A stretch of DNA of 21,909 nt from Elusimicrobiota bacterium (GCA_046153645.1 JBJXGI010000048.1:1-21909), one strand, 5' to 3'; positions 1 through 17,801 are shown, numbered from the stretch's first letter. The notes: generated by a model not told the origin, from the sequence alone. Program-made: numbers and translations.

Positions 1-126
1 CCCAACCCCTCGCGCTATTCCTCTTTCTCTCCATAGGCTCATCTCCATCGAATGACTCAATATCACATCATTCATTAAAATGAGCAACGCTAGGCTGCTG
101 GCTACGATCGCTTTTTTGGGCTTCAT
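1..126 (-). CDS. 5' fragment of a third giant-protein paralog (runs off the left edge of the window)
   Basis: Manual translation from ATG at 126: MKPKKAIVASSLALLILMNDVILSHSMEMSLWRERGIARGVG, open to base 1. SD-like GAGAGGA lies just upstream. The leader matches those of the two downstream paralogs (FFAHSYETSIWKER; INDTAFLSLSQASVWEER). Confidence 0.8.
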   Translation of the reverse strand, partial: MKPKKAIVASSLALLILMNDVILSHSMEMSLWRERGIARGVG

Positions 127-250
127 AATATTCCTCTCTGTAGAATCATCACAATTTAAAGTAAATATATTTTGTCATGATTTTTAAAATTTACCACCGA
201 AGAAACAGTTAAATTCTAATGACAAGTAGTTGACGGTTGTTACAACTTTG

Positions 251-3200
251 TTACGCATTTGTACTTCCAACCACTGCAATATCAACAATAAAATCCAAAT
301 CAGTAATTCTTAAAGGTAAAGATTGCCGCAATTCATCAATTAAACTCATCCTTCCTCGAAAATTATTGAAAACAGGATTCGCAGATATATAACCTTTAGG
401 GCCGTTAAACAATTGGCAGGGAATCTCGAGGTGATAACCCATCTCTTCATTACTGAGTTGTGAAAGCCCTTCAGCCAAAGGAACCACATTTAAAACTCTT
501 CCTTTAACATGATGAGAATAAAGAGAATTATTGGATTGAACGAGGTGAATTCTGTTTTTATATTTTTTATTGATGCCATCAAATATTTTTTGGGCGTCTT
601 TATCTTTATCACCTATGATCAGAACCAGTTTTTCATTAGGAAATTCCACGAGGAAATGTTCAATAAAATTTTTATCCTCAAATGACACTGGTAAAATTCG
701 CCCTGATGGTGTCAATTTGGGAATCGAAATATCAACCGGATGAACTAAAAAGGCCAATAATGACTTTTGTAAATCATAAGAGTCCAAATGTCCTATTCCC
801 CTTGACTGCGACAATCTGGCGATGGCTTGTTCTAAAATAAAGCGATCACTTTTATTTTCAACGTTTAAATAACCGCGGTCCATACTTCCCACGCCGAGAG
901 ACTGTTCTTTTTTTAAAATTAAATTGATCGCCTTTAAATCCAACTCATTGTTATTAGATTTATCAATAAACTTGACCAACAGAGATGAAACTTCATTAAT
1001 TTTAATTTGAATGTCCAGATCAATGATCCCAGATGACTTTCCTGAAAGATTCATTTGATCAATACCCTTTTTAATGTATTCAAAATTATCTTTAAAAGTT
1101 AAAGGCGAATAAAATACTTCCGATGCCCGTGCCGCAGAAAAAGGAAAAGACAACAAAATAAAAACGATAAAAATTTTCCAGAATCTTTTTAAAAAAATGA
1201 GACTCGTTACGAACAGGACAATCGATAAAACCAGAATTGACTTATTAGAAGTTAAAAAAGAAGAACGAAGAATCATAAAAGATCCAAAACCAACGCTCAT
1301 GAAGAAAAAGGTTTTTTTCCACATTTTTTTATCTTGATGAGGTACGGGGGGTATTGTGTTTACATTTTGTTCTAACTGTGGTGATGCTTGAATATTGTCA
1401 ACAGGATCCTCATCCTGATCATCAACTGAATCTTGATAATCGACCGTTTCAACTTCTAAATTATAATTTTCAACCTTTTCTTCTCCTGCCAATGATCCAT
1501 CAGGATGAAGGCGCCAGGATCGCTCATAAAGAAGAGGTCGAGCCAAAGGATTTTTTGAATCTATTGATTTTCCATAACCTCGTTCTGAAAAGGGATGCAT
1601 ATGAGACTCGATCAATGCGCTCTTTAATTCGTCGATCGAATACCCCTTAAACTCATCGCGCCAAAAAGAAGGAGCTCCCATAATTGGCAATTTATAGACA
1701 GTTTCAACTGACTCAATACCGAGATTATCAGAAGGATAAGTAATAAAAGTCACAAATCCCACGACTTGATTAAGTTCCATGGTTGGGTTAAACATCATTT
1801 GGTTTGTTTCAACTATCCAACCATCACGACCCAACAAATCAGAACCGCCATAGTAAATTTCTTCCAGCCCTTTATCCAATGCATCTATTTTTCTTACTGA
1901 TCTATTCAACACTCTTCGAAAAAATGAGTGATCATTAGTGCGCGCTTCTATATTGCCGACAAAAGAGGGAGAGGTATCTCGGTTTATTAATTCATAAGGA
2001 CTAAATTTCTCGCCATCAATATCTTGAGGAGAGTAAACATGAAATTGAACTATACCTTGAACTGGTTCGAAAATTCGAACAATCGCTAACAAATCTTGCT
2101 CACTGTTAGGGGTTCGTCTAGGCCAAATGAATAACCGGTACATTTCACCATGAACATTTGAAGATTCGAATCGCCCGACAATGGAACTCTTTTTTCTTTC
2201 AACTCTCGCCACTATCCTTCCCGATTTGTCTTTTTCAACTCGAAATGAAACTTTTGATATTTCTCCTGTCCTAAAATCCATCCTGGTTACTGTAACTCTC
2301 CGCACGAGTCCAGCGTATGGATTATTAGGCCCATGGTATTGAAACTGAACATGTTTTTCATAACCCTCTGGAAAATTTAAATAAATAATTTTTTCAATTC
2401 GAGATGCCTCGCCTGGAACGGTCTTAGCAACGACTTTTACACCAAATGGATATTGATGGTTAGCTGTCTGCGAATCATTATTTTCATGGGCAGTACCTGC
2501 ACCTGGTTCTTTTAATGCTTCAGAGACAGGAGATAATGCCGAAACGGGAAAAAGATCTGGAGAAAAATTATATTTGTATTTTCTTTTGGGCAATAAATCC
2601 AAAAGCTGAAGATAAATATAATACCCAAGAAAAGAAATAATAAAGGCGATTATAGCTTTAAACAAAAAATCAACTGACCCAACAGGAATTTTTAAAGCGT
2701 AAACGATCCAAAACACGATCGCCGAAAAAATTGAGAGCATTAAACCCCGCGCAAAAATTTCTGTACCATTTTTCTGAAGAAGTTCCCAATGACCTTTTGA
2801 CTTTTCGTTGTCTGGCAATTTATTCTGCAGTTGCGGTTGCTCCAGAACTTTTTTTTGATTTTCAATTTTTTCTTTTACTAATGGAAAAATGACATTGAGC
2901 CAAAAAAGATAGAAAAATATTCCCGTCAAATAGGGCGCAGATTTTTTAATGAATTCAAGAAAACCATCAAGAAAAACAGCGACCTCTTCATCGACTCTGA
3001 TGCTCAATTGAGAAGTTGAGACTTCTTGTTGTGAAGGAATCGGAGGTTCAACCATGAAAACTTCAAAAGGAGCAAGTACTTCAATACGAGGAACCAATTC
3101 TAAATGTAAGCGCGGCAACTGAATCTCCGGTATTTTTAAAGAAGAGAGAATTTTTTGAAGACGGGACATAAAGTCAATCAATTTCAGAAATAACTCAACG

Positions 3201-6200
3201 GTGACACGATCATTCGATGAGGGAAGGCTATACAGAAAAAAACCTCCCCCAGGATTTACCCTTACAATCTTCCCATCGACAAGCGGAAGCGGGACAATCC
3301 CACCAGCACCAAGCTTAGAACTGTCACCAATATTCCCGCTCTTATATGTAGATGCACCCCCTAAATCTACATCAGAAAAAGTCCTGTCGAAACTACCACT
3401 AAATGGTTTTATTTCAATCGCAAGTCGAAATACATCAATGGGTTCACCTCGTTTGTTAAAAATAAACGTTTGGATTTCAATGGGGACTCGGGCTTCAGGG
3501 TTTAAAACCCCTGAGTTTAGGTAAGTGCGAATTTCAGTTGGGGAAAAATTTTTCTCAATCAATTCATAAGGCCTAATAAGATTCCCATTGATCAAACGAG
3601 GTCGAAAAATAAGTTCTCGAATGAGCACTTCGTTACCTGAGCGGTCGTTATCCCTATAAGAAATCTGAATTAACTCAATAACTTCATCACCTTGAGCATT
3701 TCTTATCTCAAGAAAAGTAGGGCGACCCAGTTGATCACGACCAGAAAACAATCCTTTAATTTCAATATCTTTTCCGTTTTCAAACCGATGTCCGTCAAAA
3801 CCAATAAGTTGCCCGTTTATGTATTTGTAATAGATGATTTCATGAAATATTTTTTCACCTGATTTGGCAAAAAGAGTGGTTACTTTTGAAAAAAGTTGTT
3901 GAAAAGAATCATATACGAATTGGACTCTGGTTGTTAACTTGGTGTTCGGATCATTAAAACTGTAACCGTACAAAAAGCCTCTATTTCTATCTATTGATCC
4001 CCTGGTTTCTCTCGGACTTGTCGGGATCGGCGAGATGGATATGACTTCCGGAATCCGGAGATCTTGATCTGGAGAAAGAACAGCAAAATCATCATCCGAA
4101 AGACCAAACGTTCCTTTATTGACCAGATACATATTCCCCTTCGCATCCACCGCAAGCGCTGAAGCGCGGGTAATCCGGCCGGGCAACTTCATCGGTTCAC
4201 CTACTTCTTTTGGATGAGTCGGATCTTGAAGATTTAATTCATGAATAAACCCATCTGCCGTTAGAACAAACAGAGTCCCTTGGTCTTGATGACGATCTGA
4301 AAGTCCCGGCGCATAAAGAATATCAGTGGGGTTTGTTATTCCCAAACTGGATAAACTCACTCGATTAAGTTCAATAAGATCTGATAAACCATAAATGATT
4401 TTAAATTTAAATACCTGCGCCTCTGGATTATTAAGAGAAGGTTCCGTTACCACATAAAACACATTTTCATCACCAGAATAAGTCACCCCCACAGGGTTTC
4501 CAGATATGGGGTAGGTTTGAGCAGGGTTAAGTGGCACCGTAATATTATTTTTGCCTTTGGGAATATCCAAAAGAGTTAAGGTAGCACTTGCACCTTTTTC
4601 TTTGGTCACAATTGCTATTCGGTCACTTCCGTTATTCTCTCCCATGAAAATAATACCTTCTGGGTTTGTTAAGCCAAAAATATTAATGATTCGAATTAAT
4701 ATCCCATCTGGGTTGATTTCATAAATGACGTTGGTTTGCCCATCGGTTGCATATAAAGTCCCACGTCCTGTGGATGTAATACTTGAAAGGCTACCAATGC
4801 TATTTTTAAAGGGAAGATTCAAACCTAATTGTTGCGTATAGGTCACCCCAGACAACTCTCCTCTAAACTGCTCCCCGGGGATCGGCGCTCCTACGGGAGT
4901 TTGAGGAATTTGTAGCGGTCGATCGGGACGGTATACCGTAAATCCGTCGTCACCCAATCCAAAGGTGCCTTTATTCGATAGGTATAGATTTCCCGCTTCA
5001 TCTATCGCCACGCCCGCTGGTTTTGTTACTCGAGTCGGCAATGTCATCTCTCCCACCAATTTCGGATTCGCCGGATCCAAGAGATTTAATTCCCAGATCG
5101 ATTGATCTGCGGCTCGGACCACGTAGAGCCTCTGATGGTCTCGGTTATCCGCAGAAAGCCCCGGCGCATAAAGAATGTCGGCTGGGTCACTGATCCCCAA
5201 ACTTGATAAATTCACTCGCGTTAGAACCAACGCCGGTCGAACCCCGTCGATTATTTTTATCTTCAATACCTGCGCATCTGGATTATTAACAGAGGGTTCT
5301 GTTACGATATAGAAAACATCTTCTGTTTTTGAATACGCTACTCCCACGGGGTTTCCAGGAACCGTATATAGGGATGTCAAAGAAACGGTTATATCCTCTA
5401 CTCCCATTGGAATGTTCACCATCACCAACGTCGCTTCCACTCCCTTTTCTTTGGTCACAATCGCTATTCGATCTGCTCCATTTTGACTGCCCATTACCAC
5501 AATCCCTTGTGGGTTCACAAGTCCCGGAATCGTTATCACGCGTCTCAATGTCCCATCTCTATTTAGTTCCAGCACACGCCCTGTCTGACCGTCGGTGGCA
5601 TACAATGTTCCTCGCGTCGTTGCCGCCAATCCAGATACACTGGCTGTATAGGGATAATCATTTACTTCTGTGAATAGGCCTCCTATTTTGACCCCGATAG
5701 GATTCCCAGTAATTCCTTTAACTTGAGTTGTGTCCAACGATATCGTAGTAGAGCCCGTCCCTCTCGGGATCTCTATCCGCGCTAACTTTGCTGGTACAGC
5801 GGGTACTGCTCCGTTGGCTGCTTGTCCTTTTATCACCACACTGATAAATTCCACTCCATTTATTTCGCTGATCCCCACCACTCCTTGCGCATCAACCAGA
5901 CCATTCACCTGAATCGTCCGAATGACTCCTCCGCTCGCATCCAATTCAAGAATCCTTTCTCCGTCCATCGCATACACCGTCCCTCTCGACGTTGTCACTT
6001 TCCCTGGAACTGTTCGAATCTCAACCGGGAAATCGGTTCCTATCACTTGGCTATACCCCACCCCAGACAACTCTCCTCTAAACTGCTCCCCGGGGATCGG
6101 CGCTCCTACCGCAGGTTGAGGAATAGCTAAGTTTCGATCGGGTGACAAAACTGAAAAATCATCATCGGTAAGCCCTAATGTCCCTTTATTTACGAGATAA

Positions 6201-9200
6201 ATATTTCCTCTCGTATCAACTGCCAGTCCGGAAGCACGGGTGATCCGACTTGGTAATTTCATAGGCTGCCCTATTTCTTTTAGGTTATTGAGGTCTTGAA
6301 GATTCAATTCATGGATAAACCCATCCGAAGTGAGGATAAAGAGTGTTTGTTGATCTTGATTATTACTGGAAAGTCCCGGTGCATAAAGAATGTCTGCTGG
6401 GTTGACAATGCCCAATTGAGCTAAATTTACTTGATTAAGTTGTAACAGGCGAGGTGCCCCGGGAACAACTTTTAGTTTAATCACCCGCGCATCTGGATTG
6501 TTCCGAGACGGTTCAGTCACGACATAAAATACGTCTTCATCGATAGAATAAGTAATCCCAACCGGATTTCCTGAAACTCCATAGGTCTGCCCAGGATTTA
6601 CGGAAACAATAATATTTTCATTTCCTAAAGGAATATCAATAATCGTTAAAAGGGCACTTACTCCCTTTTCTTTTGTGACAATGGCAACTCGGTCTATTCC
6701 ATTTTCACTTCCCATCACCACAATCCCTTGTGGATCAATTAAGCCAGGAATATGAATGGTTCGAATAAGCGTGCCATCTGGATTCATTTCATAAAGAACA
6801 TTGGTTTGGCCATCGGTGGCATATAACGTTCCTCTTCCTGTTGTGGCCACACTGGAAAGATTACCGATAATAGATTTAAATAGTAAGTCACCACCTAGTT
6901 TTTGTGTGTAATGGATGCCGGAGAGAACACCTGAAAAAAACCGCACCTGAACAGGGAGTTCTTGAGTTTCATCTGTTTGTTCAATTCCATCAGAATCAGT
7001 CGAAATAATTTTTAACTTTAATTGGTGAACCCCTACACCATTCAAAGTTAAAGTGGGAGGCGGAATTGTTCCTCGATATATTTCGATATTGTTATCGGTC
7101 CAAACATAAAGAGCATTTTCACCTGCGGGAATAAAAGTACCGTCATAATTATTAATCGTGACCACCGCTCTTCCATTCACATTGGCTTCAACAAAAGAAG
7201 GAATAGAAACCCTGGCAATAGGCGGAGGGTTACTGGCTAAATCTTTAACCCGGACTATAGTAACCGCTTCGTTAGAACCGCCATTTCCCCGAACTGAAAG
7301 TCGAACAGATGTTTCGCCTATTGGAAAATTAAAAGGTGCTTTTAAACTAACTCCAGGCTCTCCAATGCCTTGATCAACAAGTTGCCCCCCCACATAAATT
7401 GACCACTCTAATAAAGCCCCATAAGGATCATAAGTGTTGTTTGTATTCAGTGAAACAGGTTCAACACGATTATCGTCTCGATCCAAAGCCACATAGGGAC
7501 CACCTAAATTAGCTACCGGAGGTGTCAAAGGAATAATGGGATCTGGCGCAAAAACATTAAAATCATTTTCCTGAACGCCTCCGCCCACTGTTTTGCCTAA
7601 AATATACATTCGACCATCAATGCCAAATGTAAGAGCAGAAGGGTCGGGAATCCCTCTGTCAGCCAGAGAAAATTCACTAAAAACGATTGGGGCAAGGCCA
7701 GGGTTGATTTCTTTCACAGATAAATTTGTGAGAACGAATAGGTGCGGTGACAAAAGAGGGAAATAAGCAACGGCTTTCACTCTTTCACCAAGTTGCATGA
7801 GGGCACTGATATCAATTTCAGCTAATTTCTCGGAAATAAGAGAATTGGAGTTAAGTTTTATCTCAAATATTTTTTGTTTGGTTCCATCACTCACATAATA
7901 AAAAGTGTTCTTGGATGAAATATAAGTAAGCCCAACAGGATCCCCTTCCAATGAATAAACTATAGCGTCCGAGCGCGAAATAGATACTGATTCGGAACCT
8001 GGAGGAATTTTGAAAACAGCCAATTCTTTCCCTTGATTGAGAACCACCGCATAAGTATCGCCATACATCCAAATAATATCTTCGGGATCGGCTCGAGTAA
8101 TAAGAGGATCATTTCTCTTAAGTCCCGAAACATTAATTTCACGCAATAAATTACCATTGGTATCAATTTGTAAAATTTTATCAGCCCGACTTTCAGTTAT
8201 AAAAAATGTGTTATTGATTCGATTATTTGTCAGACCAGAGTATTTTCCAAAGTTGGAAGTCTGTGTAAAGGGGAAATCTTTCCCAATTTCTTGATTAAAA
8301 ATATGCCCAGCCAATGTATTTTCGGGAGAATTTAATAATAGGTGAGTACTCGATTCAACAGTGGGAACAGAAGGAAAAAGATTTAGTTGCGAAACCAAGG
8401 CCACATTTTCAATGCCTAAATGAACCATCTGAGGAAGTCCCGTAACGGCAGGAGAACCTGACAGAGCAGTGCGAACTTCCAATTCAACAACATTTAAAGG
8501 TGGAAGTAGATTTTTCGGAAACGTAATTGCTGATATTTTTTTCTTAAGAAGTTTGAACCACTTCCCAATAGTATTAAAACCAAAATAGCTTGATGTAACG
8601 GGCTGTGGAGTAGGCGTTACAATAATGTCTTCCAGATACAGACTATGGCCCAAATCGAATTCAGGAAACTTTCGGTTTGCAAATTCGACTGGTGACAAAC
8701 CAGTACCAGAACCATCTACTATTATTTCTTTAACACTCTCACTTCTAAACTTTTTTAAAAAAAGTATAAACCAATCATAAAGGGTTTTTTTCTCGGCTAC
8801 CGAGCTTTCCATCGACTTAATTTTTGGAGCAGGTTCTCCCAAATTAAGAGGCTTTATATTATTTTTTCGTTTTACCGCTCTCTCTAGCTGAACTTCAGCG
8901 ATAATGCCCTCACCAGAATTCGCTTGAAGAATACTTTTAAGTAAAAGTAATTGTGATTCTGGTTCCTTTTTAAATTGAGCACGGGCCTTTTCAACTATTT
9001 TAGACAAGAAAGCCACCAATCCAAGCCCTTGAGAAGGATTGGGCGCGAGAAAGAGTTTTTCTCCCATCACTAATTTCTCAAGTGGCGTTTTTTCTTGTGT
9101 GAAGACACTTAAATAATCATGCCCAGTCATATCGTTAACTTTTGTTATTTTTGGAACAAATGAAACAGTAGAAATACCCGCTTGTGCTAAGCGCGCCTTA

Positions 9201-10654
9201 ATAGCAGTCGCGTGGAATCCCCCCACCACAAAAACACCGATACCCGAAGACTGTGTTTGATTGATTTTCTTGAGATAGTTTTCAACCATCACATTATCTC
9301 GTTTTCGCGCGGTCGAATAAAAAGATTCAAATGAATTCAAATGTTCACAAACAGAAAGGATGCTCAATTTTTTAAGATGAAGATAATCATCCCACTCATC
9401 AGATGAAAGAGAAAAAGTCAAAAGTTTTTTTCCGTAACGAATGAGTTTTAACTGGTTTATTATTTTCTCATCCTTGGGAGAGCGGCTTAAATGGAGATAA
9501 ATTCTTTCTTCAATTGATTTAATTTCTTTAAAGATAACTTCCCCATCAATAGCATCAGATAAATTAATGTACTCAATATATTCTGTTAAAGCGGGATATT
9601 GATCCATCCGAACACCCTGACGTGAAACAACATGAGAAAGAGTGGAATAAAAATCTTGAATTCGAATCATTGACATTCGATAAGCCCATGCTTTTTCAAC
9701 TAAAGATTGCGTTTCAACAGGAGTTAGTTTTGAAGACAAAATATTAATTAATGAAGCTCGTTCTTGTTCCACACGCTTAAAATTAATTGATTTTTCCAAT
9801 TGAACCGCCCGCAGAAATAACTTTAATGGAGAAGAGAGTCCCTTATACTGAGAAAGCTTATTAAGGTAAGTTTCCAATTGAACTTTTTTCTGGTCGTATT
9901 CTCGGACCAACGAATCAAATGCAACCAATTCTGGACTTAAGGTATTCTGAGCTATTTGCATCGTTTCTATTTCTTGCTTCAAAAGATGGGCTTGATTCGA
10001 ATGAACAAAAGACTCTGAAGCACGGTAGGCATTAATATTTTCTAAATAAAGATCGGGCTCTTCAACACCAAAAATAAGAGGAGGAGTCGAGACATTAATT
10101 AAAGAAGAGTGAACAGCACCAGAAATTTTATTTGTTTCTAGCAGAAAATGGGCGACACTCTCAAGAGTATCAGGAAGTATATTGTTTCTATAAGATTCCA
10201 ATTGAATTGTACCGGATAAACCTTCCATGGCAACGTAATCCAATTTCTGTTTTCTATAAAGATGAGTTAACAAAGCCGAAATATTAGATTGTGCTTCTTG
10301 ATTCATATGAATATCATGAACAAGAATGACCATTTTTTTCGGATTGATTTTGAGAGGCGCAACAGCTCTTATTGAACCCAAACGAGCAGGTAAATTGTTA
10401 ATAATGTCTAGGGTCGAATTTTTATTCTTTGAAGACTTAGATTCAAAAGGATTCAAAAAAATACTGGATTGAACTCGATCAGAAAGACGCACATCTGCAG
10501 AAGTGGGAAGTTGAGGAAGAAGAGAGACCAATTGCGTTGACTTTTGTCTCTCTTTCCAAATACTTGTTTCATATGAATGTGCAAAAAAGCTATTCGTTGT
10601 TAGAATAGAAACACAAATCATCCACGAAATAGTTTTTTTAAAATGGAGACGCAT
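251..10654 (-). CDS. Giant 3467-aa multidomain exported/membrane protein: conserved N-terminal domain, SdiA-regulated/YjiK-like beta-propeller repeats, PKD/Ig-like domains, TM segments
   Basis: Uninterrupted 10.4-kb ORF with an N-terminal basic+hydrophobic leader. aa 108-537 are colinear with the neighbouring 1618-aa ORF. Repeats such as SGLT...ILQIDTNGNLLREINVSG...DPEDI and GTLYATDGQT...NPDG.LIR.I.I.GL..P.GI are present, as are several hydrophobic stretches near the C-terminus. Confidence 0.9.
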   Translation of the reverse strand: MRLHFKKTISWMICVSILTTNSFFAHSYETSIWKERQKSTQLVSLLPQLPTSADVRLSDRVQSSIFLNPFESKSSKNKNSTLDIINNLPARLGSIRAVAPLKINPKKMVILVHDIHMNQEAQSNISALLTHLYRKQKLDYVAMEGLSGTIQLESYRNNILPDTLESVAHFLLETNKISGAVHSSLINVSTPPLIFGVEEPDLYLENINAYRASESFVHSNQAHLLKQEIETMQIAQNTLSPELVAFDSLVREYDQKKVQLETYLNKLSQYKGLSSPLKLFLRAVQLEKSINFKRVEQERASLINILSSKLTPVETQSLVEKAWAYRMSMIRIQDFYSTLSHVVSRQGVRMDQYPALTEYIEYINLSDAIDGEVIFKEIKSIEERIYLHLSRSPKDEKIINQLKLIRYGKKLLTFSLSSDEWDDYLHLKKLSILSVCEHLNSFESFYSTARKRDNVMVENYLKKINQTQSSGIGVFVVGGFHATAIKARLAQAGISTVSFVPKITKVNDMTGHDYLSVFTQEKTPLEKLVMGEKLFLAPNPSQGLGLVAFLSKIVEKARAQFKKEPESQLLLLKSILQANSGEGIIAEVQLERAVKRKNNIKPLNLGEPAPKIKSMESSVAEKKTLYDWFILFLKKFRSESVKEIIVDGSGTGLSPVEFANRKFPEFDLGHSLYLEDIIVTPTPQPVTSSYFGFNTIGKWFKLLKKKISAITFPKNLLPPLNVVELEVRTALSGSPAVTGLPQMVHLGIENVALVSQLNLFPSVPTVESSTHLLLNSPENTLAGHIFNQEIGKDFPFTQTSNFGKYSGLTNNRINNTFFITESRADKILQIDTNGNLLREINVSGLKRNDPLITRADPEDIIWMYGDTYAVVLNQGKELAVFKIPPGSESVSISRSDAIVYSLEGDPVGLTYISSKNTFYYVSDGTKQKIFEIKLNSNSLISEKLAEIDISALMQLGERVKAVAYFPLLSPHLFVLTNLSVKEINPGLAPIVFSEFSLADRGIPDPSALTFGIDGRMYILGKTVGGGVQENDFNVFAPDPIIPLTPPVANLGGPYVALDRDDNRVEPVSLNTNNTYDPYGALLEWSIYVGGQLVDQGIGEPGVSLKAPFNFPIGETSVRLSVRGNGGSNEAVTIVRVKDLASNPPPIARVSIPSFVEANVNGRAVVTINNYDGTFIPAGENALYVWTDNNIEIYRGTIPPPTLTLNGVGVHQLKLKIISTDSDGIEQTDETQELPVQVRFFSGVLSGIHYTQKLGGDLLFKSIIGNLSSVATTGRGTLYATDGQTNVLYEMNPDGTLIRTIHIPGLIDPQGIVVMGSENGIDRVAIVTKEKGVSALLTIIDIPLGNENIIVSVNPGQTYGVSGNPVGITYSIDEDVFYVVTEPSRNNPDARVIKLKVVPGAPRLLQLNQVNLAQLGIVNPADILYAPGLSSNNQDQQTLFILTSDGFIHELNLQDLNNLKEIGQPMKLPSRITRASGLAVDTRGNIYLVNKGTLGLTDDDFSVLSPDRNLAIPQPAVGAPIPGEQFRGELSGVGYSQVIGTDFPVEIRTVPGKVTTSRGTVYAMDGERILELDASGGVIRTIQVNGLVDAQGVVGISEINGVEFISVVIKGQAANGAVPAVPAKLARIEIPRGTGSTTISLDTTQVKGITGNPIGVKIGGLFTEVNDYPYTASVSGLAATTRGTLYATDGQTGRVLELNRDGTLRRVITIPGLVNPQGIVVMGSQNGADRIAIVTKEKGVEATLVMVNIPMGVEDITVSLTSLYTVPGNPVGVAYSKTEDVFYIVTEPSVNNPDAQVLKIKIIDGVRPALVLTRVNLSSLGISDPADILYAPGLSADNRDHQRLYVVRAADQSIWELNLLDPANPKLVGEMTLPTRVTKPAGVAIDEAGNLYLSNKGTFGLGDDGFTVYRPDRPLQIPQTPVGAPIPGEQFRGELSGVTYTQQLGLNLPFKNSIGSLSSITSTGRGTLYATDGQTNVIYEINPDGILIRIINIFGLTNPEGIIFMGENNGSDRIAIVTKEKGASATLTLLDIPKGKNNITVPLNPAQTYPISGNPVGVTYSGDENVFYVVTEPSLNNPEAQVFKFKIIYGLSDLIELNRVSLSSLGITNPTDILYAPGLSDRHQDQGTLFVLTADGFIHELNLQDPTHPKEVGEPMKLPGRITRASALAVDAKGNMYLVNKGTFGLSDDDFAVLSPDQDLRIPEVISISPIPTSPRETRGSIDRNRGFLYGYSFNDPNTKLTTRVQFVYDSFQQLFSKVTTLFAKSGEKIFHEIIYYKYINGQLIGFDGHRFENGKDIEIKGLFSGRDQLGRPTFLEIRNAQGDEVIELIQISYRDNDRSGNEVLIRELIFRPRLINGNLIRPYELIEKNFSPTEIRTYLNSGVLNPEARVPIEIQTFIFNKRGEPIDVFRLAIEIKPFSGSFDRTFSDVDLGGASTYKSGNIGDSSKLGAGGIVPLPLVDGKIVRVNPGGGFFLYSLPSSNDRVTVELFLKLIDFMSRLQKILSSLKIPEIQLPRLHLELVPRIEVLAPFEVFMVEPPIPSQQEVSTSQLSIRVDEEVAVFLDGFLEFIKKSAPYLTGIFFYLFWLNVIFPLVKEKIENQKKVLEQPQLQNKLPDNEKSKGHWELLQKNGTEIFARGLMLSIFSAIVFWIVYALKIPVGSVDFLFKAIIAFIISFLGYYIYLQLLDLLPKRKYKYNFSPDLFPVSALSPVSEALKEPGAGTAHENNDSQTANHQYPFGVKVVAKTVPGEASRIEKIIYLNFPEGYEKHVQFQYHGPNNPYAGLVRRVTVTRMDFRTGEISKVSFRVEKDKSGRIVARVERKKSSIVGRFESSNVHGEMYRLFIWPRRTPNSEQDLLAIVRIFEPVQGIVQFHVYSPQDIDGEKFSPYELINRDTSPSFVGNIEARTNDHSFFRRVLNRSVRKIDALDKGLEEIYYGGSDLLGRDGWIVETNQMMFNPTMELNQVVGFVTFITYPSDNLGIESVETVYKLPIMGAPSFWRDEFKGYSIDELKSALIESHMHPFSERGYGKSIDSKNPLARPLLYERSWRLHPDGSLAGEEKVENYNLEVETVDYQDSVDDQDEDPVDNIQASPQLEQNVNTIPPVPHQDKKMWKKTFFFMSVGFGSFMILRSSFLTSNKSILVLSIVLFVTSLIFLKRFWKIFIVFILLSFPFSAARASEVFYSPLTFKDNFEYIKKGIDQMNLSGKSSGIIDLDIQIKINEVSSLLVKFIDKSNNNELDLKAINLILKKEQSLGVGSMDRGYLNVENKSDRFILEQAIARLSQSRGIGHLDSYDLQKSLLAFLVHPVDISIPKLTPSGRILPVSFEDKNFIEHFLVEFPNEKLVLIIGDKDKDAQKIFDGINKKYKNRIHLVQSNNSLYSHHVKGRVLNVVPLAEGLSQLSNEEMGYHLEIPCQLFNGPKGYISANPVFNNFRGRMSLIDELRQSLPLRITDLDFIVDIAVVGSTNA
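4844..4894. repeat. 51-bp perfect direct repeat, copy 1 (encodes VGAPIPGEQFRGELSGV)
   Basis: caccccagacaactctcctctaaactgctccccggggatcggcgctcctac, identical to 6059-6109. Confidence 0.9.
6059..6109. repeat. 51-bp perfect direct repeat, copy 2
   Basis: Identical to 4844-4894. Confidence 0.9.
6950..7525 (-). other. Two PKD/Ig-like domains within the giant protein
   Basis: PPVANLGGPY...VSLNTNNTYDPYG.L.EW...FPIGETSVRLSV and PPIARVSIP...YVWTDN...GVGVHQLKLKI follow the PKD-type pattern (PVA.AG, SxDPDG, YxW, GxHxVxLxV). Confidence 0.6.
7530..8310 (-). other. Divergent SdiA-regulated/YjiK-like beta-propeller domain within the giant protein
   Basis: YSGLTNNRINNTFFITE...ILQIDTNGNLLREINVSG...DPEDIIWMYGDTYAVV...DPSALTFGIDGRMYIL resembles the YjiK/SdiA-regulated family pattern. 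Confidence 0.65.
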
Positions 10655-10745
10655 AATAAAACATTTTACTGAAACGACCTTAACTTTCCCTTAAGATCAT
10701 GTAAAAAGTAAAAGTGGTTGTTTACACAATTGTTACAACCTCGTT

Positions 10746-13700
10746 TTAAGCACTTTGGTGAACCCGCTTCATATGGTTTAAACGCCCTCTTAGAACATTT
10801 AAAAACGTTTTAATTGCTTCAAATTGCTCATTTAATGCGATCAATTGCCCTAACTGGAGGTTTGGGGCACCACTCCAATCCACAGGTAGGCCTTCTCTTT
10901 TGACCAGGACAATCTGATGATCTTCATACCCTTGTTTTTTAAGAATTGTCTCAATAGCACCCATAACCAATGTTGTTTCACCCGATTTTGAGGTTGATAA
11001 CGGAACGGTATCGAAAATGATGCCGCCCGGTGAAGTAAACCACCATTGAATATTTTTGTTAAGATTTTCTTCCTTGAGAACAACAAGAACGGGGGTTTTC
11101 CCGGCCAATTTTGTAACCCGAAAAAGATTTTTAAGAGAGGAAATATCTTCAGTGGGATCTAACTTCTTATCAACCACAACCACAAAAACTTTTTTCTCAG
11201 TCAAAGACTCAATATCCTGGTTTAGGGGCATGGAATGCCAAATTGGTGGCATCAATTGAGGAGGCTGAAAATAACGTTTGCCTGGGGGTTTTCGAAAATG
11301 AAAAGCCACCCGGCGAAGAAAATTCAGCGCAGCGATGACAGTGTAATCTCTTCGATCATGAATACTGTTGTTTAATTCTTTTCCCAAACGGTCAACCTCT
11401 TCAGAAATCAACCAGAAATTGGGATTGGGAAACAATGAAAGCATATAAAGAATCAAATCTCCTGGACTGGAGCGGGCACCACGTTTATCACGTGACCAGG
11501 TATGAAATTTAACAGAATGCCAACCTGCCTTATCGTCATTTTTATTGCCTCTCCAAATGGGAAACCGACGCCGAATGCGCTTCCACGCTTCTAGAAACGC
11601 GTTGAGGCCAGGACCATTGCGATCAACATTTTCAATAACATGATGCTTATCTTCTTTACCGCGGTTCCAAACAAAGCCAGCACCCGCCGATTGAAGGAGA
11701 TGCTGTATATCAGACTCAGGAGTATCCATTCGCGAAAGGTAAGGCTCAACATCCAACGGAAAACGAATAATAAAAACACCCCGTGTTTTTCCGGATTCCT
11801 TTAATAACTTCTCGTCCTGGTTTGGAACACGCTGAACATAAGCCTGCCCCGTGGCTTCTCCAACGATTTGATGCGCGATAGAAAGACCAAATCCACTTGA
11901 ATCTCCTCCACTCACATTGGAGAGCCAAAGTGAATCGGCTTCATCGGGATCATCAGAAAGAAGCGTTGATTTAAATCCTTCACCGTCATCTTCAACGGTA
12001 ATGACACACTCAAGACCAACCCTTTCTATCGTTACCTTCACTTTTGTATTGACCCGAGCTCCATGTTTCTGCGCGTTTCGAAACAAATTGTCGAAGACGC
12101 GTAACAAATGGTCATAGTCGCCAATAATAATAGAGGAACCCTCGACTGGCGGAACAATCGTGATTTCTGGAAATCCCCCTAAAAACCGCGCTTTGGCAAA
12201 ATGAATCAACTCAACAATATCAACCGGTTCTGGAACGCCACGGTATGTGCCGTTGAAAATAAATTTTTCTATTGATGCCGCCATGCTCTGACAAAAACGG
12301 AAATTTACCTGAGCCATGTCAAGACTCTCTTTCAACTTGGCCATGTCGTCTATAGGAAAATTTCCTTCTTTTATTGACTCTTCATACCACGCGTAAAGAG
12401 CCGCAATTTGCTTGGAAATATCAGGGTTCTGTAACGCTTCATTTACTTGAATTAATCCATCAGCCATCCTCCCGGCTACGAGCGGAAAATTTGGATGTTT
12501 TTTCTTTACCGCATTCTGAAGGTGGGAAGGAATGCTAAACGCCCTTTCGGCGGCTTGTCGCATTCTGTCAAAATGATCGTTAAGCGCACTTGCGATACTC
12601 ACAATTTCTAGCGGCGCATTAAAATCCTCAAGAATATAAATAATCAATTCGGCCTTAGACAAACACACAGCAATAGGTGTTTTTATGTCATGTTCCATCT
12701 GTTTTCGGTAACGCACTTGACGCACCATTCGATCAGGACTTAAAAGAGCACGAATGAAGTGAAGAAGTTTCTGTTCAGAAGAAAAAACCTTTGGATGCGC
12801 GTGCACACGCATCGGCTCAGAAGGGAATTGCTGTTCAAAAGAATTTTGATGGCCTTTCAATTCGCGGTTTACAATTGTGTCAATATAGGTTTCCCGAGAT
12901 TCAGTTGGGATTGCCAACAATCCTTGTAGCAAAATTCTGTGCACATAAAAAACCGCGGTTCCACCCTCATTGGTGAAAAAAGGAGCCAAGATAAATAAAT
13001 CGGGAGTTGAGATAAGAGATTGCCCGCCAAAAATTTTAACCTCAACATCGGTAAGACCAGAAAGTGGTTTTTCCTTTAACTGAGTTCTAAATGCCTCTTG
13101 AATCTCCTCAACCAATAACTCCAAATCCGCTGTCGTGGTTTTTCCGGTTTTTTTGAGAAGGCCGCTTTTCAGAAGAACTTCCAGTAAAACTATTGGAGTA
13201 ACCCAATCCCACTTGGCTACACTCGTTGAGATATAGGCATTTATTTTTTTCTCATTAATCTTATCTTTAATCTTTCCTTTCAAATTCACAAAAAAAGTTT
13301 TCACTCGTTTCTTTATTTTTCTGGTGAAAGAGTCTCCCAATTGGTACTTAAGCTCTTTTAAAACCGATTTTTTCCTATAAGCAGAAGACTTAAACACCAA
13401 GATAATAAGATCATGGATAGAACCATAATGTAATGCGCCTACCAGCGTCATCCGAGAAAGCCCTGTGGCATTCCAAAGCCGATGAATGGCAGCAGTTAGT
13501 AAAATATCACCGGAAAAAACTGCACCAACATTAAAAAGAATCGTCGCTATAACTCTCTCTATTGTTTCCCTGCGCGTTTGACTGGCATGCCTTTTAATAT
13601 AAGCAATCTGGGCTCGAATAACGATGAGACTGAGCATCGCGATAGCAAAAACAGAAAATGCCATTACAAAAATGGAAAAACTTTCATGCCATTTAACCAG

Positions 13701-15602
13701 ACTCGAAATGGCCGCCGCGATAATAATAGCGGGAACTCGACCTTGCATGAACGAATCCCACCATCCACGACCTTTGGATTTCCATCCAATTTCCTCAGCC
13801 AAAGCATGAAGCCATTCAAGCGGCGCAAAAAACAAACGAACCTTACCAATGGCTCGATCCACTGTAAAAGTGACAACAATGACGGCAAAGCCAATCCCCA
13901 CAAACACCTGCTTCCCAAAATGAAACGTCCATACAGAACGCTTTTGCCTCGTTGTCGGAAGCAGGCGGTTAAATATTTGAGCTGCACCATTCATCCCATT
14001 TTTCGCTTCTATCGCCGTGGCTAAGGAAGGAGCTTTTCCATTGGCAACCACTTCGGAAAACGGCGCCCCCGCTAAAAACAAGCGATCACCTTCAAACAAA
14101 CGGTCAAGAGGTGCTTTCTCTTGGCAAAAGGCACTCAAGTAGGCGGTGCCATTTTCAGTTTCGACTTTCGTTATTTTTGGAACATAAGTAATAGTCGTTA
14201 CTCCAGCCTCCGCCAAGCGCCGATTAATTCCATCAGAGTGGAAACCACCAGTGACAAGAATAACCGTTGATTGTTGGCCCTCAATGAGCCTTAATACATT
14301 ACTTGCCATGGCAACATCACGCGCTTCGGCTTTTCTGTAAAAATCTTCAAACGATGACAAATTGAAACCCTGACTTATTGACAATGTTTTATCTATTTCT
14401 ATTTTGTATTTTGCCCACTCTTGACTGGTTAATGAAAAATCTAATAATTTTCCAATCAAATACAATTGTTCGTTTTCTTGAGCGAGCTGACGTTCTTCCT
14501 TATTTTTAATGAGCGCTGTATAAGCCCGCGCTTGTACACTTTCAATTTCGTCAAAAATTTCTCCAGCATCAACCAATCCAACCAAACCGACATATCGAAA
14601 ATAATCTCGCAGCACAGGGCTCATTTTTTGATTCGCACCTGTTCTCTCAGCTATTTTTTGGACATGGGCATAAAAATTCGCGATGGATAGCTCACCACGA
14701 GAATACGCAACATTCATGGTCATAAACCGCTTGTTTTCTACGGAATCTAACGCTGTAAGCAAACGTACAAAAAAAACATCGCGTTCTTTTTGTACCGCTG
14801 AAAAATCGAGAGTACGTTCTAATTCAATCGCCTCTTTAAACCGTTCCAGTGGGAGAGAATGAGACTTTGTGAAAACCAACAAAAGCGAAACAAAATCGCC
14901 TAATTTCAATTCATTACGGCGATAAGCTTGAACTTTTTGATCTAATTCAAGAAGTTTCGAATTAAAAACAATCAATTTTCGTTTTAAATTTTCATTAAAT
15001 TTCCGCGAGAGATTTTTCTTAATATCTGCGCTCAATAAAATAGAACGACGGTAAGCCTCTATATTAGCTTCATAATTTTTTTCATCATCCACGCCAACAA
15101 CAGGTGGTGTGGGATGAGAATGAGTCAATGCCGCATGAATAGGACCGGAAATATCGTTTATGTTAAGTAGATAATCAGCCATAGAACGTATCGTTTCCGG
15201 GCGCAAGAATTTTTTAAACCGTGAAAGATCGATTTCGTGAAAAGCGCCTTCTAGAGCAATAGCACTGATTCTTTGATGACGAATCATTTCTTGAATGGCG
15301 GCGGCAATATTTTTTTGCGCTTCAAGATTTCGGTGAATGTCTTGAATATGAATGACAACAGGCGCAGACGTGTTTGTTTCTAGGTATTTACTCTTTTTCA
15401 TTCTGACAAAAGCGGAGGATAAAAGTTCAGGATCGACAATCGAGCGAACTGGTGGCAATAAGGGAAGAGCTTGCCTGGTTTGTATTAACTCTCGACGTTC
15501 TTCCCACACGCTGGCCTGTGATAAAGATAGAAATGCCGTGTCATTAATAAAAACATTAACAACCAAAATAGCAGCAACAAATTTTCGAAAATAAAAATAC
15601 AT
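10746..15602 (-). CDS. 1618-aa multidomain protein: conserved N-terminal domain, TM/CPBP-like module, HisKA + HATPase_c histidine kinase
   Basis: Signal-like leader, and aa 82-511 are paralogous to the 3467-aa ORF. Kinase boxes: H-box EHDIKTPI, N-box LLRVFDNLFRNAQKH, G1 VEDDGEGF, G2 SGFGLSIAHQIV. Confidence 0.88.
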   Translation of the reverse strand: MYFYFRKFVAAILVVNVFINDTAFLSLSQASVWEERRELIQTRQALPLLPPVRSIVDPELLSSAFVRMKKSKYLETNTSAPVVIHIQDIHRNLEAQKNIAAAIQEMIRHQRISAIALEGAFHEIDLSRFKKFLRPETIRSMADYLLNINDISGPIHAALTHSHPTPPVVGVDDEKNYEANIEAYRRSILLSADIKKNLSRKFNENLKRKLIVFNSKLLELDQKVQAYRRNELKLGDFVSLLLVFTKSHSLPLERFKEAIELERTLDFSAVQKERDVFFVRLLTALDSVENKRFMTMNVAYSRGELSIANFYAHVQKIAERTGANQKMSPVLRDYFRYVGLVGLVDAGEIFDEIESVQARAYTALIKNKEERQLAQENEQLYLIGKLLDFSLTSQEWAKYKIEIDKTLSISQGFNLSSFEDFYRKAEARDVAMASNVLRLIEGQQSTVILVTGGFHSDGINRRLAEAGVTTITYVPKITKVETENGTAYLSAFCQEKAPLDRLFEGDRLFLAGAPFSEVVANGKAPSLATAIEAKNGMNGAAQIFNRLLPTTRQKRSVWTFHFGKQVFVGIGFAVIVVTFTVDRAIGKVRLFFAPLEWLHALAEEIGWKSKGRGWWDSFMQGRVPAIIIAAAISSLVKWHESFSIFVMAFSVFAIAMLSLIVIRAQIAYIKRHASQTRRETIERVIATILFNVGAVFSGDILLTAAIHRLWNATGLSRMTLVGALHYGSIHDLIILVFKSSAYRKKSVLKELKYQLGDSFTRKIKKRVKTFFVNLKGKIKDKINEKKINAYISTSVAKWDWVTPIVLLEVLLKSGLLKKTGKTTTADLELLVEEIQEAFRTQLKEKPLSGLTDVEVKIFGGQSLISTPDLFILAPFFTNEGGTAVFYVHRILLQGLLAIPTESRETYIDTIVNRELKGHQNSFEQQFPSEPMRVHAHPKVFSSEQKLLHFIRALLSPDRMVRQVRYRKQMEHDIKTPIAVCLSKAELIIYILEDFNAPLEIVSIASALNDHFDRMRQAAERAFSIPSHLQNAVKKKHPNFPLVAGRMADGLIQVNEALQNPDISKQIAALYAWYEESIKEGNFPIDDMAKLKESLDMAQVNFRFCQSMAASIEKFIFNGTYRGVPEPVDIVELIHFAKARFLGGFPEITIVPPVEGSSIIIGDYDHLLRVFDNLFRNAQKHGARVNTKVKVTIERVGLECVITVEDDGEGFKSTLLSDDPDEADSLWLSNVSGGDSSGFGLSIAHQIVGEATGQAYVQRVPNQDEKLLKESGKTRGVFIIRFPLDVEPYLSRMDTPESDIQHLLQSAGAGFVWNRGKEDKHHVIENVDRNGPGLNAFLEAWKRIRRRFPIWRGNKNDDKAGWHSVKFHTWSRDKRGARSSPGDLILYMLSLFPNPNFWLISEEVDRLGKELNNSIHDRRDYTVIAALNFLRRVAFHFRKPPGKRYFQPPQLMPPIWHSMPLNQDIESLTEKKVFVVVVDKKLDPTEDISSLKNLFRVTKLAGKTPVLVVLKEENLNKNIQWWFTSPGGIIFDTVPLSTSKSGETTLVMGAIETILKKQGYEDHQIVLVKREGLPVDWSGAPNLQLGQLIALNEQFEAIKTFLNVLRGRLNHMKRVHQSA

Positions 15603-15712: not shown

Positions 15713-16543
15713 TTAAAACCGACCGCGAAGCCGTTCTTTTCCAGGCAGGATTTCCAGACAGGTGGTCCACCACCCCGTGGTGATGGTATCAATAAATTCT
15801 TGAGGAAGTTTTTCGTCTCGCATTTCTTGAGCTAAAACTGACCAATCATAATCAACCTTTAAAAGTTCAATCTGAGGCACATTATTTAATATTGAAATCT
15901 CAGAGTACCAAACATTTTGGTTTCCATCGTTGGCAGGGCGCCCAATAGCACCAATATTAACAACCCATTTTCGAGGTGCTACTTCGCGCTTCCAGGGAAT
16001 GCCGGTATGAGTGCAGCATAAAATATCGCATTCAAGTTCATCCATCATTCTCAGTAAAAATGCATTAGACGTAGTCGTGTCCCATAAAAACTCATTTATC
16101 CTTCTGGGAGAACCATGACACAAATGAACGACGAAAGACCCTAAGTGAAACTGAACTTGTTTTGGAAAATTTTTTAGTAGAGAACGATTTTCATCAGAAA
16201 TATTTTTATCTGTATAATCATAAGACATCGCCGCATAATAATTATCTTTGGGGTGAGAATAACCACAACCACAATCAGCCGCTTGAGTAATTAATGATTC
16301 TTCATAATTACCTTGAATACATTGAACGTTAAACTGTTTTAAAATTGGAAATACTTCATTGGGATAAGGGCCAAACCCTCCCAAATCTCCCAATTGAAAA
16401 ATTTTTTCCATTCCATGATGAGTGGCCATTTCGCACGCTTTTTGAAGGGCCACATGATTATTATAAACCCCACCCAAAAGACCCACTTTCTGATAAGTGG
16501 TATTGAGCTTTTCAATGGAGGGGGCACAGCCTACGTACGACAC
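15713..16543 (-). CDS. Atypical metallophosphoesterase (calcineurin-like) family protein
   Basis: Motifs LGDLGGFGP, IQGNYE, CHGSP, CTHTG and VNIGAIG. The start is uncertain: the ORF track gives 16573, which overlaps the radical SAM gene by 43 nt, and the in-frame GTG at 16543 gives a smaller overlap. Confidence 0.82.
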   Translation of the reverse strand: MSYVGCAPSIEKLNTTYQKVGLLGGVYNNHVALQKACEMATHHGMEKIFQLGDLGGFGPYPNEVFPILKQFNVQCIQGNYEESLITQAADCGCGYSHPKDNYYAAMSYDYTDKNISDENRSLLKNFPKQVQFHLGSFVVHLCHGSPRRINEFLWDTTTSNAFLLRMMDELECDILCCTHTGIPWKREVAPRKWVVNIGAIGRPANDGNQNVWYSEISILNNVPQIELLKVDYDWSVLAQEMRDEKLPQEFIDTITTGWWTTCLEILPGKERLRGRF

Positions 16544-17439: not shown

Positions 17440-17498
17440 AATTAATAAGAAAGAATTATGCCATTTTTAAGGCGGAAAGAAGATAAAACAGTTCTTGA

Positions 17499-17547: not shown

Positions 17548-17554
17548 TCATCAG

Positions 17555-17797: not shown

Positions 17798-17801
17798 AAA
17801 C

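Follow-up and report, generated by a model that had tools for sequence, protein, structure and literature searches.

Three co-oriented genes in a 21,909-nucleotide stretch of DNA from an Elusimicrobiota bacterium (GCA_046153645.1 JBJXGI010000048.1:1-21909; hereafter "the window", meaning the whole stretch) belong, in a reading that we favour with modest confidence, to a very large and fast-diversifying family of giant modular cell-envelope proteins. In this family an exported head of the TIKI type, the superfamily of Tiki, ChaN and the erythromycin esterases, would be part of a constant frame around exchangeable middles. Two of the three genes, P0001 and P0002, are complete, and the third runs out of the window. 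The evidence comes from the head itself, from the abrupt end of similarity behind it, and from conserved features at the C-terminus and upstream of the genes.

The shared head and its likeness to the TIKI superfamily

BLASTP of P0001 against P0002 gave one significant match, between residues 1-540 and residues 1-514 (32% identity, E 4e-77), and E values of at least 4.8 for all other segments. The similarity stops between MGEKLFL and APNP in P0001 and between EGDRLFL and AGAP in P0002, the abrupt end that an earlier reading of this DNA (the original prediction) had described. That prediction had also delimited two common blocks of 430 amino acids (residues 108-537 and 82-511); their equal length stood and a gap-free alignment did not, two one-residue gaps being offset by one two-residue gap. 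Its leader of the form S-[ILV]-W-x-E-R in co-oriented neighbours was recovered in three minus-strand genes (TSIWKER, ASVWEER and MSLWRER). The full segments are ETSIWKERQ in P0001, QASVWEERR in P0002 and EMSLWRERG in the third gene, with the consensus [ST]-[ILV]-W-x-E-R, and in all three leaders they follow a basic start and a hydrophobic core. Leaders across the family have basic N-termini, a hydrophobic core and A-x-A-like ends, and W-x-[EDK]-R is present in 36 of the 45 family open reading frames (ORFs) with an intact 5' end. The head that follows the leader is ~480 residues long.

The search and paralog count that the original prediction had called for were carried out with a hidden Markov model built from the two blocks. 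The window's genome is an Elusimicrobiota metagenome-assembled genome (MAG) of 2.63 Mb (2,626,138 bases) on 105 contigs, 99.7% complete, and 48 of its open frames carry the head (E 0 to 1.7e-16), which is N-terminal in every one of them. Two of these frames are pieces of one broken gene (contig C23), and 14 touch a contig end. Together the family frames comprise 106,760 codons, 12.2% of the genome, and 35 of the 53 ORFs of at least 1500 amino acids carry the head. Against 1.84 billion representative proteins the profile found 9141 clusters (50% identity) at E <= 0.001, 5504 of them at E <= 1e-30; among the 150 matches listed, all end by residue 640, in proteins 553-6142 amino acids long. The 79 loci returned from species-representative genomes are all from Elusimicrobia/Elusimicrobiota MAGs, including Candidatus Obscuribacterium magneticum.

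Within the phylum, we found the head in 79 of 301 sampled genomes, complete single-contig genomes among them, in open frames of up to 11,814 codons. Its distribution by taxonomic family is patchy (f2, 0/88; f3, 0/22; f8, 0/27; f14, 48/89; f4, 5/5). Similar giants had been expected in both Elusimicrobiota and Omnitrophota; the expectation held for Elusimicrobiota, and in Omnitrophota stand-alone relatives of the head were found. These forms of about 550 amino acids, commonest in Omnitrophota, consist of a signal and the head, with a stop just past the KTP motif, and mark the natural boundaries of the head. In two other genomes of the phylum the neighbours of stand-alone heads are mostly unknown proteins, together with one Cache-HAMP-PAS kinase and a LysM/FecR protein, and no clear partner gene was seen beside the heads there.

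Several observations connect the head to the TIKI superfamily. PF04187 (ChaN, Tiki superfamily) was matched by 9 of 13 heads at E <= 1. In a search of the whole genome it gave nine matches, all of them in family ORFs and two above the curated cut-off (28.1 and 30 bits). PF05139 and PF01963 each matched one of the 13 heads weakly, at E 0.1 and 0.39. No NCBIfam model matched the head or P0001, and the head profile found nothing credible among PDB sequences, the best match being a 76-residue fragment at E 0.0036. An AlphaFold model of the P0002 head, built from 92 sequences, had a predicted local distance difference test score (pLDDT) of 86.6 and a predicted template modelling score (pTM) of 0.85. 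In a structural search of 48,161 solved chains with this model only four reached Z >= 8, and all four are TIKI superfamily members: ChaN (2g5g; Z 9.2, root-mean-square deviation 4.6, 171 residues aligned), the erythromycin-esterase-like BcR136 (2qgm; Z 9.1, 3.9, 169), EreC (6xcq; Z 9.0, 4.6, 204, spanning model residues 25-491) and the erythromycin-esterase-like BcR135 (2rad; Z 8.6, 5.0, 176). The next matches are from the same superfamily (HopBA1, Z 7.7; the C-terminal region of PMT, 6.7; RRSP, 5.9), and a first, shallower model of the head gave the identical order.

Seven residues of the head (D88, H90, E118, R428, G452, G453 and H455 in P0002 numbering, forming D-x-H, E, R and GGFH) are invariant in 92 of 92 heads, the stand-alone Omnitrophota forms included. 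In the available part of PMC6254334 the catalytic set of RRSP, among the active TIKI enzymes, is given as E3900-x-H3902, E3930 and H4030, plus R4001. The order of these residues is identical in the head, and the spacing from His to Glu is 28 in both. A helical insertion of about 260 residues lies between E118 and R428 and can be likened to the helical domain of the Ere enzymes, which is shorter. Along the chain, conservation is highest in two stretches, the final ~35 residues of the head (YLSxFxQEKTPLxKLFxGxKLFL) and the W-x-E-R segment that comes just after the signal peptide; these two are the only parts without confident structure in both models.

Taken together, the weak Pfam matches, the predicted fold and the invariant residues therefore led us to read the head as a TIKI member with an active site of the enzyme type. 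Judged from sequence and model, it is probably a divergent and unnamed family of the TIKI superfamily (Tiki/ChaN/erythromycin-esterase) that has kept this site. On this reading the "carrier" block of the original prediction is not passive: it is a putative Tiki/ChaN/erythromycin-esterase-type hydrolase-like domain with invariant residues of catalytic type.

A sharp junction, unrelated middles and constant ends

We measured the junction on 32 paralogs anchored without gaps at the G-x-x-LFL motif. Mean pairwise identity was 0.59 at positions -20 to -11 and 0.64 at -10 to -1, fell to 0.11 at 0 to +9 and stayed at 0.06-0.08 thereafter; conservation thus peaks precisely where the head stops. At the DNA level, identity over the last 30 codons of the head is 57.5%, and no exact run is longer than 20 nucleotides. 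Past the junction only 23 paralog pairs are similar at E < 1e-5. The pieces common to these pairs are short modules of 72-435 residues, sometimes at differing positions, and in six pairs the similarity runs straight on past the junction. A modular family with one fixed, sharp junction and varying cargo, as had been predicted, was supported by both the drop in identity and the small number of cargo-similar pairs.

The variable part makes up about 65-95% of each protein. Among the 41 cargos other than those of P0001 and P0002, 16 had a Pfam match (E <= 1e-4) and 25 had none. The matches comprise sigma-70 regions (three proteins), an SNF2-type and an SF1-type helicase, AAA_5 (three proteins, one with vWA), methyltransferases, a metallophosphatase, a cNMP-binding module (one paralog), UDPGP, M50, an Rce1-like module and some weak propeller matches. 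By crude hydropathy, nearly all paralogs, among them P0002, have their first cluster of transmembrane helices 60-180 residues behind the head. Because most family members carry membrane bundles, they look like giant membrane proteins and not like secreted toxins, and the predicted layout fits an exported head on proteins that stay in the membrane. Modules resembling intramembrane proteases are found just behind the head in a few members (an Rce1-like module in three of 43, which passes the cut-off in one case, and M50 in one). We considered whether the transmembrane cluster behind the head is an intramembrane protease as a general rule and rejected this, as only these four of 43 members have such a module and P0002 is not one of them.

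Comparison between genomes gave a similar picture of conserved heads and differing middles. The cargo of P0002 was not found in five genomes of the same taxonomic family, and in the class only small modules and generic kinase matches were found. Eight giants from two related genera are 40-46% identical to paralogs of the window's genome over the head; one of the eight alignments continues for about 200 residues past the junction, and beyond that only two short modules match.

The third gene of the window adds a pair of relatives from the same assembly. The ends of contigs C33 and C17 match the first 127 bases of the window exactly. Given this overlap, the third gene continues on C33 (1444 amino acids in all), and the assembly forks there. 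Between the C17 frame and the C33 protein, a stretch of 41 residues (C33 residues 555-595) is 97.6% identical and the last 222 residues are 58% identical, and the middles, of ~1090 and ~630 residues, are unrelated. This pair looks like the clearest sign that a middle has been exchanged between constant ends, and recently so, as read from contig ends.

The C-terminal end is a second constant mark. Ala is the last residue in 30 of the 32 complete ORFs of the family and in 123 of 1799 ORFs outside it. Each of the four Ala codons occurs at this position, and the DNA downstream varies. The last ~22 residues follow an amphipathic pattern in fixed register, hydrophobic at -15, -11, -8, -5 and -4 and basic at -7. 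In leave-one-out scoring, 23 of the 32 tails exceed the 99th percentile of the background, and 21 of 32 still do so when the last residue is omitted; 18 other frames lie above this mark, nine of which are contig-edge fragments cut at the 5' end. A jackhmmer search with the last 200 residues of P0001 against all ORFs found no other ORF, and phmmer among the tails linked four triplets and left 20 of 32 as singletons. The tail is visible only as a position-specific pattern. We also considered the tails as degrons resembling the tag of transfer-messenger RNA (tmRNA). The tag specified by the genome's tmRNA (contig C20:56038-56386) is ADQELALAA. A terminal AA is present in 9 of 32 family tails, too few for this reading, and most tails end in N/Q/H/G/S-A; with so loose a likeness we rejected this candidate.

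The third constant mark lies upstream of the genes. We defined the element as a pair of T-W-A-C-M half-sites 10-12 nucleotides apart, or a pair of TTAA-K half-sites 10-13 nucleotides apart, within 200 nucleotides upstream. Such pairs precede 27 of 43 family ORFs and 46 of 1763 others (Fisher p = 2e-29); this count replaced that of a stricter repeat pattern, found at 5 of 43 family and 16 of 1763 other ORFs. The first kind of repeat stands upstream of all three genes of the window, and P0001 has the second kind too. Both kinds together occur at only three ORFs outside the family. One of these is a 6624-residue frame (contig C87:10609-30481) that has no head and yet carries a similar leader.

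Many family genes have, by reading, a TATAAT-like hexamer 8-14 nucleotides before the ATG and no Shine-Dalgarno stretch. In P0001 the -10-like TAAAAT sits 8 nucleotides before the ATG, and no Shine-Dalgarno-like stretch was seen in the sequence read there. These arrangements suggest that the messenger RNAs of many family genes may be leaderless or nearly so. The third gene differs in having GAGAGGA ahead of its ATG.

Some family members and relatives elsewhere have unusual compositions. The largest member in the window's genome has 10,189 amino acids (contig C86:11315-41881) and matches AAA_5 and vWA; a module bearing transmembrane helices recurs about eight times in its second half, every ~400-720 residues. 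Two further members (C31:7197-14609 and C71:4302-9788) contain sigma-70 regions 2, 3 and 4, the last of these in three to four copies, and the C31 member also has a transmembrane-bearing module of ~120 residues four times; by their domain content these two look like membrane-tethered sigma factors. A frame longer than 2271 amino acids from another genome of the phylum (on contig C79; positions 1-6813 of the locus, minus strand) matches class-II fructose-bisphosphate aldolase, triosephosphate isomerase and the NAD domain of 2-hydroxyacid dehydrogenase, and would be a giant protein with metabolic-enzyme modules.

Layout of the window

The coordinates of the features are collected in the table below.

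Table. Features of the window discussed in the text; positions count from its first base.
Feature	Position	Strand	Remarks
P0001	251..10654	(-)	giant ORF, 3467 amino acids
P0002	10746..15602	(-)	giant ORF, 1618 amino acids
Third family gene, 5' end (42 codons)	126..1	(-)	signal-like leader with EMSLWRER; ORF leaves the window
Leader and head of P0001, residues 1-536	9047..10654	(-)	D114, H116, E144, R452, H481 of catalytic type
Leader and head of P0002, residues 1-510	14073..15602	(-)	D88, H90, E118, R428, H455 of catalytic type; helical insertion ~174-440
Junction motif of P0001, residues 514-536, YLSVFTQEKTPLEKLVMGEKLFL	9047..9115	(-)	last and best-conserved part of the head
Junction motif of P0002, residues 488-510, YLSAFCQEKAPLDRLFEGDRLFL	14073..14141	(-)	
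Five SdiA-regulated-type beta-propeller units of P0001	4022..8314	(-)	PF06977, 7.6e-35, 120.7 bits, 4 stretches
First transmembrane cluster of P0001, ~residues 2575-2688	2591..2932	(-)	hydropathy scan
Second transmembrane cluster of P0001, ~residues 3108-3176	1127..1333	(-)	hydropathy scan, crude
Tail of P0001, last 22 residues, ending PLRITDLDFIVDIAVVGSTNA	254..319	(-)	leave-one-out score 20.6; background 99th percentile 1.2
Transmembrane cluster of P0002, ~residues 559-706	13485..13928	(-)	four hydrophobic stretches, ~50 residues behind the head; hydropathy scan
Candidate H-box EHDIKTP of P0002, residues 970-976	12675..12695	(-)	motif, 185 residues before HATPase_c
HATPase_c of P0002, residues 1161-1283	11754..12122	(-)	47 bits, cut-off 26.4
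Direct repeat upstream of third gene	237..254	(-)	GTAACAA-N4-GTAACAA; first half-site overlaps the P0001 stop codon
Upstream element of P0001	10663..10736	(-)	GTAACAA-N4-GTAAACAA (10736-10718), CTTAAG-N6-TTAAGG (10695-10678), -10-like TAAAAT (10668-10663)
Direct repeat upstream of P0002	15669..15686	(-)	TTTACA-N4-GTTTACAA; sequence read

P0001 is composed, in order, of a signal peptide, the hydrolase-like head, a linker, five propeller units with an Ig-like stretch, transmembrane bundles and the Ala-ended tail. The propeller units (residues 781-1038, 1240-1530, 1525-1655, which is partial, 1656-1935 and 1930-2211) have mutual identities of 26-67%, and the array includes a non-repeated stretch at 1045-1225. 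No transmembrane helix is predicted by crude hydropathy between the head and about residue 2575, so that ~2000 residues of propeller and Ig-like sequence intervene. The G+C content peaks at 0.488 at positions 5001-6000, inside the propeller repeats, compared with 0.35-0.43 in the rest of the window, together with a strong negative GC skew.

P0002 has a signal peptide, the hydrolase-like head, a transmembrane cluster, a histidine-kinase core, a C-terminal part of ~330 residues to which no family was assigned, and a terminal Ala. There is no HisKA Pfam match, and the H-box is therefore a candidate by sequence pattern; the NCBIfam histidine-kinase models all score far below their cut-offs. The cargo labels of the original prediction agree with these assignments: P0001 has propellers of the SdiA-regulated type, and P0002 has HATPase_c and a hydrophobic cluster behind the head.

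The gaps between the family genes are 91 nucleotides (P0002 to P0001) and 124 nucleotides (P0001 to the third gene), and the next gene is each time a family member. On the same strand, 5' of P0002, lie genes for a metallophosphoesterase, a radical-SAM protein, an AAA_14/DUF4143 ATPase, a flavin oxidoreductase, a CMD-family protein and an ABC ATPase. The radical-SAM and metallophosphoesterase frames, directly 5' of P0002 on the same strand (15713-17439, minus strand), overlap at 16531-16573. A MazE-antitoxin/PemK(MazF)-toxin pair (17495-18143, plus strand; PF04014 3.5e-10, PF02452 5.8e-24) lies between the radical-SAM and AAA_14/DUF4143 genes. Among the window's genes we found neither a secretion gene nor an immunity gene, and no response regulator.

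A proposed mechanism, its alternatives and known systems

On the explanation that we favour, Sec would export the head, whose periplasmic role would be that of a hydrolase, either a peptidase or an esterase, or of a substrate-binding protein derived from one. The giants would remain anchored in the inner membrane as giant multi-pass proteins and would not be released as effectors. Head, tail and upstream element could then form a constant frame for common machinery, serving export, maturation or turnover, and regulation, while the middles would be exchanged or rebuilt through recombination between the constant ends. The weakest step is our best guess about the action of the head: it may cut or trim an extracytoplasmic peptide, perhaps the family's own W-x-E-R segment or its junction segment (KTPL..LF.G.KLFL), and such a cut would mature the variable part or release it on a signal.

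A number of observations weigh against this explanation. Signal peptides were judged by eye and transmembrane helices by a crude hydropathy window. The head of P0002 scores 25.7 bits against PF04187, below the cut-off of 27.7, and that of P0001 is not among the nine heads that match the model. A structural Z of ~9 is moderate, and Foldseek against PDB gave nothing at E <= 0.001 with either model, the weak rows being led by EreC (E 0.055, the top one) and BcR135. The first acidic residue is Asp in the head and Glu in RRSP. ChaN is a haem-binding protein and no enzyme. PMT has kept the fold and lost the catalytic residues (PMC6254334, available part). Because of these two relatives, the fold alone proves no catalysis. 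As for the constant frame, 16 of the 43 family ORFs have no upstream repeat as defined, the tail of P0002 fits poorly (score -10.7, with only the terminal Ala in agreement), and that of the third gene scores -2.7. The sharp junction could equally reflect unequal constraint on its two sides and not exchange. Finally, in four DNA metagenome runs (one study, low depth) the contigs across both junctions were identical and showed no alternative joints; at this depth, identical contigs are not informative on swapping.

The haem-binding function of ChaN is the starting point of a possible, if doubtful, alternative, in which the proteins are ligand-sensing receptors. The head would have lost catalysis or never had it and would bind a small ligand in the periplasm as ChaN does, haem or another compound of the envelope; each giant would be a transmembrane receptor in one chain, and one signal would lead to differing outputs (a kinase, a sigma factor, a cNMP-binding module or an ATPase). 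ChaN is indeed the top structural match and gives the matching Pfam model, signalling-type outputs are present behind the transmembrane cluster (HATPase_c in P0002, sigma-70 in three paralogs, cNMP_binding in one), and the order of head, transmembrane helices and output is the layout of ordinary sensor kinases. What counts against receptors is the invariance of the complete D-x-H/E/R/GGFH set in all 92 heads, a pattern of the superfamily's enzymes and not of a binding-only member according to the available part of PMC6254334. Moreover, it is difficult to see why a 2.6-Mb genome would have 48 receptors for one identical signal, the head of P0001 and others is followed by ~2000 extracytoplasmic residues and no output, and 25 of the 41 further cargos have no recognisable domain.

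As the original prediction had also allowed, each giant ORF could instead be cut into several independent proteins, by the head or by embedded proteases, which would make the family one of polyprotein precursors that ensure the co-expression and co-localisation of sets of proteins. The superfamily includes site-specific endopeptidases (RRSP; Tiki, as the available part of PMC6254334 has it), and cleavage by N-terminal C39 or S8 peptidases has been suggested for giants of Omnitrophota (bioRxiv 10.1101/2023.11.21.568195, available part). The Rce1-like and M50 modules just behind the head and the complete functional units within the chains, such as sigma-70 regions 2, 3 and 4, would be in keeping with this. 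We consider it improbable: the borders of cytoplasmic domains would be out of reach for an exported head, no recurring motif resembling a cleavage site was seen between modules, and protease-like modules behind the head are exceptional (4/43).

The original prediction had envisaged an export/effector system organised like polymorphic toxins. In such a system the head would serve trafficking, and the variable part would be a cargo sent outside or into neighbouring cells. Polymorphic toxins such as CdiA and Rhs (also MAFB) have a conserved N-terminal part, a border motif with unrelated sequence after it, and gene arrays. This much of the proposal survives, since the family likewise combines a conserved N-terminus and a strongly conserved border motif with unrelated sequence after it, and its genes stand in tandem arrays; several relatives with the TIKI fold (RRSP, PMT and HopBA1) are, in addition, domains of injected toxins or effectors. 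The rest does not. The variable part is no swappable C-terminal tip: it forms most of the protein, usually opens with transmembrane helices, holds further membrane-embedded clusters and cytoplasm-type modules, and is followed by a conserved Ala tail at the extreme C-terminus. Pfam revealed no toxin family in the 43 cargos (the 41 further ones and those of the two window proteins; 25 of the 41 had no Pfam match of any kind), and the short gaps behind P0002 and P0001 hold no small ORF that might encode immunity. A dedicated secretion gene is likewise missing among the window's genes. The suggested link to type II secretion or type IV pili did not hold up either: their ATPase (PF00437) is nearly universal, being present in 274 of the 301 genomes, and occurs throughout families in which the head was not found (f2, 88/88; f3, 22/22; f8, 27/27), so there is no co-occurrence signal. 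We therefore regard a toxin-like system as very improbable.

That the giant frames are mis-assemblies or unexpressed relics, as the 14 frames at contig ends and the split C23 gene might suggest, is effectively refuted: stop-free frames of 1000-10,189 codons at 38-40% G+C are impossible by chance, the architecture recurs in 79 of 301 genomes including complete single-contig ones, the contigs of the four runs reproduce both junctions unchanged, and the invariant catalytic-type residues and the tail are under evident selection. Among the sequencing runs searched no RNA data set with this DNA turned up, a result to which we give no weight here.

If the three genes do belong to a family of membrane-anchored envelope proteins with a TIKI-type head, a wider version of this explanation can be formulated, which we think unlikely. 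In it, head, tail and repeat would be the handles of one cell-wide system, with a single regulon, possibly leaderless messenger RNAs, head-first export, maturation or release of each giant by its own periplasmic TIKI-type protease head at the conserved N-terminal or junction peptide, clearance through the Ala tail, and switches gated by proteolysis. Each giant would then be a self-contained switch able to free a sigma factor, a kinase or an ATPase, and new switches would arise by swaps of the middle between constant ends, as the C17/C33 pair suggests.

The proposed family of envelope proteins matters beyond this mechanism. It occupies an eighth of a near-complete genome and has thousands of metagenome relatives, with no name and no Pfam or NCBIfam model of its own. 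Full-text searches gave no published description of the head family and, as the original prediction had supposed, no functional characterisation. The predicted architecture joins an exported domain of hydrolase type to complete cytoplasmic regulators and motors within single polypeptides that reach 10,189 residues, and three constant marks are kept around middles that are freely rebuilt. Knowledge of what the head cuts or binds would account for a large share of the biology of environmental Elusimicrobiota, and it may reveal a new way to build membrane signalling or surface proteins. As a compact and well-predicted domain, the head is a practical target for biochemistry.

Among known systems, the nearest in scale are the giant genes of other uncultivated bacteria. 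Elusimicrobia are listed among the phyla rich in huge proteins (PMC11573180, available part). In the available part of the preprint on Omnitrophota (West-Roberts et al., bioRxiv 10.1101/2023.11.21.568195), the giant ORFs of these uncultivated bacteria have, like the family described here, an N-terminal signal, many transmembrane segments and a mixture of extracellular-type and cytoplasm-type domains (HATPase_c, AAA_5 and others), and N-terminal peptidase domains are suggested as processing enzymes. They differ in that these N-terminal peptidases are of the C39 and S8 types with no TIKI-type head, and in that single giants of more than 10,000 amino acids are presented; that part of the preprint describes no set of dozens of paralogs united by one head, one tail and one upstream element.

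P0002 resembles sensor histidine kinases in its predicted plan, with a putatively exported N-terminal domain, a transmembrane cluster, a candidate H-box and HATPase_c. It differs from them in lacking a HisKA Pfam match, in having the family head in place of the usual sensor fold, in the ~330 further residues behind the kinase core, and in the absence of a response regulator from the window.

Tiki, TraB/PrgY and ChaN are extracytoplasmic, and in TraB/PrgY and Tiki membrane helices follow the domain. P0002 and nearly all paralogs share with TraB/PrgY-type proteins the succession of a TIKI domain and, by crude hydropathy, membrane helices; P0001 differs, its first predicted transmembrane helix coming only at about residue 2575.

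For the superfamily as a whole we compared ChaN/Cofac_haem_bdg (PF04187), EreA-C with BcR135/136 (PF05139), TraB/PrgY/GumN (PF01963), Tiki1/2, RRSP, PMT-C2 and HopBA1. The modelled head shares with them an alpha/beta core (a parallel beta-sheet flanked by helices; top Z 8.6-9.2), weak repeated Pfam matches, the order of [DE]-x-H, E, R and G-x-x-H with the His-to-Glu spacing of RRSP (28), and, with the Ere/BcR135 enzymes, a helical domain inserted in the core. It differs as an unnamed family of its own, which no NCBIfam model matches and whose two complete heads in the window reach no Pfam cut-off, in a much longer helical insertion (~260 amino acids), and in conserved W-x-E-R and KTPL..LF.G.KLFL ends that are unstructured in the models. 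Unlike its relatives, it stands as a module at the N-terminus of proteins that reach 10,189 amino acids, with dozens of paralogs per genome.

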